Source: Isurus oxyrinchus (taxonomy: Eukaryota). From it: DNA of 64,000 nucleotides. The translations under genes and the position numbers were made by a program. The notes under the pieces are model-generated. The model saw only the letters and a program-made list of their open reading frames with translations. It had not been told where the DNA came from and made no database searches. Below are positions 22,080 through 22,196 of this stretch, one piece after another (the stretch's first letter is position 1; each line of letters starts with the position of its first letter). The DNA lies in contig JANJGN010000071.1 of the NCBI GenBank assembly GCA_026770705.1, forward strand, positions 620,001-684,000. Reading direction: 5' to 3'.

Positions 22080-22196
22080 CTAATATCTACAGCAGATACC
22101 ACAAGTCTCATTTGGTTCTCTCCAATTACAGCAGTGACAGCAGAATCTGCAGGGCCGCTGTCTGCTCATTCTCTTCTGGCGCTGCAGCAAGGAGCC
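22080..22196 (-). CDS. HAMP: Hepcidin exon 3 (furin site + mature 8-Cys peptide)
   Basis: cttttccag|GGC TCC ... CGC CAG AAG AGA ATG AGC ... TGC TGT AGA TAT TAG. Confidence 0.95.
   Translation of the reverse strand, partial: GSLLQRQKRMSRQRPCRFCCHCCNWREPNETCGICCRY

Follow-up and report, generated by a model that had tools for sequence, protein, structure and literature searches.

An expanded family of hepcidin paralogs in a siglec-like gene array of Isurus oxyrinchus, a candidate set of defence peptides

Main finding

A stretch of 64,000 nucleotides from the genome of Isurus oxyrinchus (hereinafter referred to as the window) was found to contain a hepcidin exon with unusual features in its mature peptide. 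The reading that we consider probable on balance is that this exon belongs to an intact member of a family of about 89 hepcidin paralogs lying in a siglec-like array, separate from two HAMP1-type genes of the same genome, and that its product is a secreted defence peptide no longer regulating ferroportin.

Hepcidin gene in the window

The mature peptide, MSRQRPCRFCCHCCNWREPNETCGICCRY, is the translation of the minus strand from 22169 to 22083, and the stop codon follows at 22082-22080. Six residues (MSRQRP) precede the first cysteine, the loop (NWREPNET) comprises 8 residues, and an N-E-T sequon occupies mature positions 20-22. The gene consists of three exons separated by phase-0 GT-AG introns of 1847 and 2316 nt, and it encodes a precursor of 88 aa with an RQKR site directly ahead of the mature peptide. 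The following features were assigned.

26417..26509, minus strand: hepcidin exon 1, with ATG and signal peptide; the GT donor is intact here and is TT in 36 sister copies
24513..24569, minus strand: hepcidin exon 2, prodomain, 57 nt, bounded by AG/GT; its 3' end is the loose end found at the exon 3 acceptor in run X1
22080..22196, minus strand: hepcidin exon 3, with the prodomain end, the RQKR furin-type site, the 29-aa mature peptide (22169-22083) and the stop; AG acceptor, spliced junction in run X1
22152..22169, minus strand: derived N-terminus MSRQRP, in which His3 and the hydrophobic residues at 4-6 are missing; by sequence comparison, members of the expanded family vary most in this segment
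22104..22112, minus strand: N-E-T sequon, mature residues 20-22, with which the 8-residue hairpin loop (22127-22104) ends; it adjoins Cys23, is 9 residues from the C-terminus and is present in 86 of 86 in-frame copies

The peptide, its 8-residue loop and the N-E-T sequon had been proposed in the original prediction; all were read directly from the minus strand, and the gene model was complete. A sequencing error as the source of the loop was ruled out by genomic copies and by contigs of organism B: the window peptide is encoded by six genomic copies in which the exon is letter-identical, an 8-residue loop ending in NET was present in all in-frame copies, and the same loop was recovered in four DNA runs of organism B.

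Against the Pfam Hepcidin profile (PF06446; cut-off, 27 bits), exon 3 scored 30 bits and the 29-mer alone 23 bits. All eight cysteines of the window peptide align with those of 16 other hepcidins in the pattern C-x2-CC-x-CC-loop-C-x2-CC, and the closest solved sequence was the hepcidin of PDB 1S6W (E 0.25). An AlphaFold model of the peptide showed two strands at low confidence (mean pLDDT 62, pTM 0.30), and Foldseek returned no match. The window peptide is a hepcidin that belongs neither to HAMP1 by sequence nor to teleost HAMP2 by descent, and it would most likely work like HAMP2.

HAMP1-type genes and the hairpin loop

Two HAMP1-type genes were identified on contig C34, also among siglec exons. 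Both encode MSHLSICMYCCGCCNKKGTKKTCGYCCKL, which has His3, a hydrophobic N-terminus, a net charge of +5 and an 8-residue loop, and which carries no sequon. A synteny search for LSR gave matches on contigs C18, C452 and C1620, with none on C34. Shark HAMP1-type genes (C34; XP_078389754.1 of Cetorhinus; XP_038670190.1 and XP_072325013.1 of Scyliorhinus; XP_067831448.1 of Heptranchias) share with the window gene three exons, a precursor of 88 aa, eight cysteines, the 8-residue loop, the Met1-Ser2 start and siglec neighbours. In contrast, the window peptide differs from the C34 peptide at 16 of 29 mature residues, has no His3, has its loop lysines replaced (+3 versus +5) and has gained the sequon, whereas the prepro part differs at 7-8 of 59 residues. 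The C34 mature peptide differs from HAMP1 of the basking shark and catsharks at 2-3 of 29 residues, and the catshark prepro part at 14-19 of 59.

Among the database relatives, the loop was 8 residues long in the HAMP1-type peptides of the basking shark, two catsharks and the sevengill shark. Elsewhere its length was 10 in the elephant shark, 6 in an electric ray, and 4 in sturgeon, paddlefish, axolotl and lizards. The loop of human hepcidin also has 4 residues. As far as these relatives indicate, the 8-residue loop is the usual state in sharks and is ancestral rather than derived; a long loop as a derived trait was ruled out, since the HAMP1-type peptides of four shark species have it. The features derived in the expanded family are the change of the N-terminus, the loss of loop lysines with the resulting lower charge, and the gain of the sequon.

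The original prediction had described an atypical hepcidin with a cationic N-terminus. The atypical character holds in that the peptide is not of the iron-hormone type: His3 and the hydrophobic residues 4-6 are lost as in teleost HAMP2, and a separate HAMP1-type gene is present. It does not hold for the loop, and the proposed alignment with chondrichthyan orthologs showed the insertion to be shared with shark HAMP1 and not peculiar to this peptide. The cationic N-terminus was found in the window copy only; the commonest copy (24 of 86) has a single Arg there, and the family (net charge 0 to +4) is less basic than HAMP1 (+5). A specialisation as a cationic peptide was not supported, the window peptide being at +3 and the HAMP1-type peptide of the same genome at +5.

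Size and state of the expanded family

A search of the genome with exon 3 yielded 94 matches among 95 candidates. Of these, 89 showed 75-100% identity and two, on contig C34, 57%; the three weak matches (E above 2) were left out of the copy count. The Pfam Hepcidin profile search of the genome returned the same set and a few further weak matches, which were likewise left out. Those at C126:1200707 and C988:21589 (E 0.33) contain two stops each and are possibly relics or chance matches.

The 89 copies, a number that refers to the assembly as it stands, are distributed over 14 contigs (30 on C52 and 20 on C71) and occur in both orientations; the median distance between them is 112 kb. Allelic duplication was mostly ruled out as their source, as a near-identical partner (at least 99.5% identity over 7 kb) was found for only 12 of the 89 copies and 30 copies lie on one contig.

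Each copy was assessed together with 8 kb of sequence. Forty-three of the 89 were intact, with three exons, canonical GT-AG sites and eight cysteines, and the other 46 appeared broken. Among the latter, 36 had a TT intron 1 donor, the sole defect in 29; the remaining broken copies had an exon 3 frameshift (3), a changed acceptor (2) or a broken exon 1 (1), and in four neither exon 1 nor exon 2 lay within the stretch taken. The TT donor (GT to TT at the equivalent of window position 26416) affects 36 of the 84 copies in which exon 1 is whole, and the peptides encoded by these 36 are of many kinds. These copies are likely pseudogenes, because the next GT, 24 nt downstream, would introduce a stop. 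At each of five variant sites that were tested, the TT donor occurred in combination with either allele, and recombination between hepcidin copies is therefore indicated.

The 86 in-frame exons encode 40 distinct mature peptides, and 21 distinct peptides are encoded by intact genes. None of the 86 has His3, and all have the N-X-T sequon, although eight other non-cysteine positions are equally invariant. The processing site was RQKR in 63, RQNR in 19, HQNR in 3 and CQKR in 1, a variation that may alter cleavage. Seven copies (L039, L051, L058, L060, L096, L113 and L114), three of them intact, have a two-codon deletion in the mature N-terminus and encode a 27-mer starting with MGRF.

In the literature searched on shark and cartilaginous-fish hepcidin, shark siglec expansion and hepcidin copy number, no report of a shark hepcidin expansion was found. 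In PMC6795676 and PMC3832898, nothing on shark hepcidin was found, and a nurse shark plasma proteomics study includes hepcidin without detail (PMC9207270). HAMP1-type queries of the protein database returned no derived-type genes annotated in other sharks, although queries of this type may miss such genes. The copy number is about eight times the highest that we found published (11, in fugu), although larger published counts may exist. The 21 intact variants and the matched HAMP1 control constitute a panel for functional comparison.

Expression and the derived type in organism B

The contigs of run X1, a single sample whose RNA status is a guess and whose depths cannot rank genes, had a summed depth of about 130,000 (>100,000 across exon 3) versus 265 in the intron, with a drop at the exon 3 acceptor. 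The loose end at this acceptor matched exon 2, which gives a spliced junction. These contigs contained alleles of the commonest derived type, several alleles of the derived type being represented, together with exact HAMP1-type pieces. Exon 3 was absent from the coverage of runs X5 and X6, an absence that carries no weight.

In organism B, one contig of the derived type was found in each of four DNA runs. Its loop and sequon are those of the window peptide, and its N-terminus reads Met-Ser-Gln-His-Gln-Phe. Its depth was 404 in run X18, versus 16-25 for the other contigs listed, and 149 in run X23, versus 6 for one other; these depths hint at collapsed copies and are not a copy number. Contigs with a HAMP1-type exon 3 were not recovered from the runs of organism B, which is no evidence of absence.

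Divergence of the mature peptide and age of the paralog

Between the window gene and the C34 HAMP1-type gene, pN of the mature region was 0.377 (25 of 66 sites), compared with 0.090 in 600 flanking non-coding sites (Fisher p ~5e-9); the flanking DNA was 9% different throughout. Mature pS was 0.345 (5 of 14.5 sites), with a dN/dS of about 1.1 inside the mature region. With mature pS raised as well, the signal of selection depends on taking the flanking DNA as the neutral reference. When mature pN was compared with the full set of synonymous sites, p values of 0.010-0.016 were obtained.

Within the family, mature piN was 0.051, versus a piS of 0.012, 0.007-0.019 for non-coding DNA and a prepro piN of 0.006 (40 intact full-length copies, the three shorter ones being left out). 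Non-singleton variants numbered 14 at 66 mature N-sites, versus 54 at 1032 non-coding sites (p 2e-5). When singletons were counted too, the excess within the family was not significant (p 0.07), and the copies are not independent of one another. The excess of amino-acid change confined to the mature peptide fits selection on that peptide.

The same excess would also be compatible with an old paralog whose flanks were homogenised, a history that we regard as possible but somewhat unlikely. The second type would then be an ancient shark paralog with an old mature peptide, its signal, pro, intron and UTR sequences having been kept HAMP1-like by gene conversion. Besides the raised mature pS, such a history finds support in second-type hepcidins recorded from the sevengill shark (XP_067831447.1, Heptranchias) and a catshark (XP_038669797.1, Scyliorhinus canicula). 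Like the window peptide, these combine a prepro part close to their own HAMP1 (1 residue different in the sevengill shark and 3 in the catshark) with an altered N-terminus and a lower charge (+2 and +1, respectively). The Heptranchias peptide shares Arg8, Phe9 and Ile25 with the window peptide, and that of Scyliorhinus canicula has a sequon at another site. The second-type records differ from the window family in having other loops and in being single records, with no expansion among the records retrieved. Against such a history, 15 of 29 residues are different between the sevengill paralog and the window peptide, and the loop of that paralog resembles the one in sevengill HAMP1. Recent conversion was not in evidence either: the derived prepro part is no closer to HAMP1 of its own genome (7-8 residues) than to that of the basking shark (7), and the flanks are 9% apart. 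The second-type records of the catshark and the sevengill shark (P0005 and P0021) carry automatic names only, and the catshark sequon is N-terminal.

Siglec-like neighbourhood

The hepcidin gene lies among siglec-like exons, of which the following were assigned in the window.

8039..13852, plus strand: siglec-like exons (two V-set, a C2-set and an Ig exon), by profile and sequence matches; they and the hepcidin gene are arranged tail to tail
40214..52651, minus strand: siglec-like gene with a V-set exon carrying the YFFR arginine, a C2-set exon, some seven Ig exons in tandem and a cytoplasmic exon that bears the tyrosine motifs LLYANI and TEYTQI; best PDB matches Siglec-5, MAG, Siglec-8 and CD33

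The V-set exons beside the hepcidin gene gave CD22-like profile matches and keep the YFFR arginine. The tandem Ig exons (window 43049-50907) are 85-92% identical and belong to one siglec-like gene, whose product would have an ectodomain of unusual length. The CD22/MAG/CD33-like array, represented in the window at 8039-13852, 40214-52651 and 60444-60791, was observed on contigs C52, C71, C121, C150, C189, C323 and others; many of its exons are 85-99% identical and a few contain stops. Fragments of a reverse transcriptase ORF, presumably LINE-like, were observed at 1522-2997.

A genome search with one V-set exon returned 1096 candidates, and the 150 that were scored lie on 13 contigs, of which 12 bear hepcidin copies. 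The linkage of hepcidin and siglec genes is probably ancestral, because human HAMP adjoins MAG and CD22 and because the C34 genes sit among siglec exons; the hepcidin copies probably multiplied with the siglec array. This large unplaced immune locus, with hepcidin and hundreds of siglec-like exons, had no published description that we could find.

Such co-distribution raises the alternative that the number of hepcidin copies simply follows from duplication of the siglec-like genes around them, with one or a few copies that matter while the rest drift and decay. The 12 shared contigs, the siglec neighbours of the C34 genes, the 46 broken copies and the recombination seen at the TT donor are all consistent with passive expansion. 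Nevertheless, variation among intact copies is concentrated in non-synonymous mature sites while the signal and pro regions are nearly invariant, several alleles are represented in spliced transcripts, and the 16-residue rewrite relative to HAMP1 would be left unexplained. We regard this as unlikely to be the whole explanation; as the cause of copy number, it can be combined with the reading of the family as defence peptides.

Promoter structure

26581..26790, minus strand: promoter, with a TATA-like element at 26586, GGCGCC followed by AGAC at 26728 and TTGCACAA at 26770, from the sequence

We take GGCGCC with AGAC at 26728 to be a BMP/SMAD-type element and TTGCACAA at 26770 to be a C/EBP-type site. 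In 74 of 85 family copies, GGCGCC with AGAC is found near the TATA box, some 220 nt upstream of the ATG, and the retention of this element in most promoters could reflect iron/BMP control. The GGCGCC block is farther from the start codon in the C34 HAMP1-type genes, at a distance of 2.8-3.5 kb upstream. The intervening segment combines unique with repeat sequence and carries TGATACCA at either end. When window 26620-26860 was compared with C34 at 15.205-15.239 Mb, about 2.6-3.3 kb of the HAMP1-type promoter, with TGATACCA at both ends, was absent in the family. The expanded family thus differs from shark HAMP1 in lacking about 3 kb of promoter; it has also gained TTGCACAA and lacks the proximal TTGCTCAA of HAMP1. 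The simplest reading of the promoter difference would be a deletion in the founder of the expanded family.

Ferroportin loci and iron regulation

Three ferroportin-like loci were identified (C14:56.7 Mb, C14:74.7 Mb and C3:138.6 Mb). Aligned to the human chain, the canonical ferroportin at C14:56.7 Mb keeps all six residues checked (D325, C326, Y333, Y501, D504 and H507). Gly326, Ser501 and Arg507 are found in the paralog at C14:74.7 Mb, which would by these residues be predicted to resist hepcidin, and the paralog at C3:138.6 Mb has Phe333. According to one study, C326, D325, D504 and H507 are important for the binding of hepcidin, whose effect on ferroportin resides in its first nine residues (bioRxiv 2020.03.16.993006). 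Gly326 was common to 16 of 16 shark, chimaera and coelacanth records of the C14:74.7 Mb-type paralog, whose exon is 97-100% identical among lamniforms, and one ferroportin-like exon was protein-identical to a white shark record. By this distribution, the Gly326 paralog is ancient, far older than the expanded hepcidin family. The suggestion that the peptide had co-evolved with a divergent ferroportin was accordingly not supported, the canonical protein having kept its six site residues and the divergent paralog being far older than the family.

That the family still regulates iron, whether by action of the C-terminal half of the peptide on canonical ferroportin or by action on either of the two extra paralogs, with the copies raising the hormone dose, appears quite doubtful. 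The presence of the divergent loci and the position of GGCGCC with AGAC close to the TATA box in most promoters speak for it, as does the effect of some croaker Hamp2 peptides on intracellular iron described in PMC6240063. However, change in the peptide is greatest in the very N-terminal segment responsible for the action on ferroportin, the Gly326 paralog shows no speed-up with the family, and a conserved HAMP1 is already present. In sea bass, as reported in PMC5665920, Hamp1 regulates ferroportin and Hamp2 does not.

Glycosylation

Native bass hepcidin was reportedly isolated without a glycan. The sequon of the window peptide, which organism B shares, adjoins a cysteine and is 9 residues away from the C-terminus. 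According to PMC6683751, the use of sequons within the last 50 residues relies on STT3B, to which disulfide formation limits access, and PMC5665920 describes a Pro-Asn-Met-Ser sequon in the same loop of sea bass Hamp2. With these constraints, we place occupancy of the sequon in vivo below even odds, and it may be only partly occupied.

A far-reaching proposal, which we hold to be very improbable, is that mackerel sharks independently evolved a HAMP2-like class of more than 40 working genes in a siglec array, forming a recombining N-glycosylated repertoire (the first glycosylated members of the family) that would serve as microbe-tagging ligands for the neighbouring lectins. Scarcely credible is a glycopeptide with a sialylated N-glycan that would coat microbes or host cells and bind the siglec-like receptors amplified alongside it: the sequon is invariant here and in organism B, the neighbours keep the YFFR arginine and the second catshark paralog gained a sequon at another site, but an ancestral linkage needs no functional tie, eight other non-cysteine positions are as invariant, access to STT3B is limited for such a sequon, and sea bass Hamp2 has a loop sequon too.

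Proposed origin and mode of action

Under the favoured reading of the family as defence peptides, a HAMP1 gene would have been duplicated in a lamniform ancestor, and the duplicate, freed from iron control, would have had its mature peptide rewritten under selection. A deletion of about 3 kb may have rewired the promoter, and segmental duplication and recombination together with siglec genes would have multiplied and shuffled the hepcidin copies. The precursor would be secreted, cut at RQKR or RQNR and folded as a four-disulfide hairpin that binds or agglutinates microbes. A charge of 0 to +4, versus +5 in HAMP1, argues against a better membrane-lytic peptide, and with this lower charge, binding, agglutination or immune signalling would be at least as likely as membrane lysis.

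Comparison with teleost HAMP2

Teleost HAMP2-type peptides, which lack the iron-type N-terminus, are mainly antimicrobial. The window family shares with teleost HAMP2 (hampII; sea bass Hamp2 and the bass hepcidin of PDB 1S6W) the origin as a duplicate of the iron type, the loss of His3 and of the hydrophobic N-terminus, the CRFCC core, the CC-R-aromatic end, Pro-Asn-x-Ser/Thr in the loop, and tandem expansion with a fast-evolving mature peptide. It differs in its prepro and intron sequences, which are about 90% identical to shark HAMP1, in its 8-residue loop, in its siglec array, and in its 89 copies compared with 6 in croaker and 11 in fugu. Descent from the percomorph hamp duplication was not found, the prepro part being 7 of 59 residues and the flanks 9% away from shark HAMP1.

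The HAMP2 type has been described as limited to Percomorphaceae/Ovalentaria, with the six croaker copies called the highest number (PMC6240063, published in 2018). In a 2022 study, hampII is called teleost-only, the 11 copies in fugu are the most in the sample, and seahorse peptides agglutinate rather than kill (PMC9073008). The split into iron-type and defence-type hepcidins has thus been described as a teleost feature; the same split is suggested here in sharks, where it apparently occurred more than once. As a natural replicate, the shark family may therefore help to identify the residues by which an iron hormone becomes a defence peptide.
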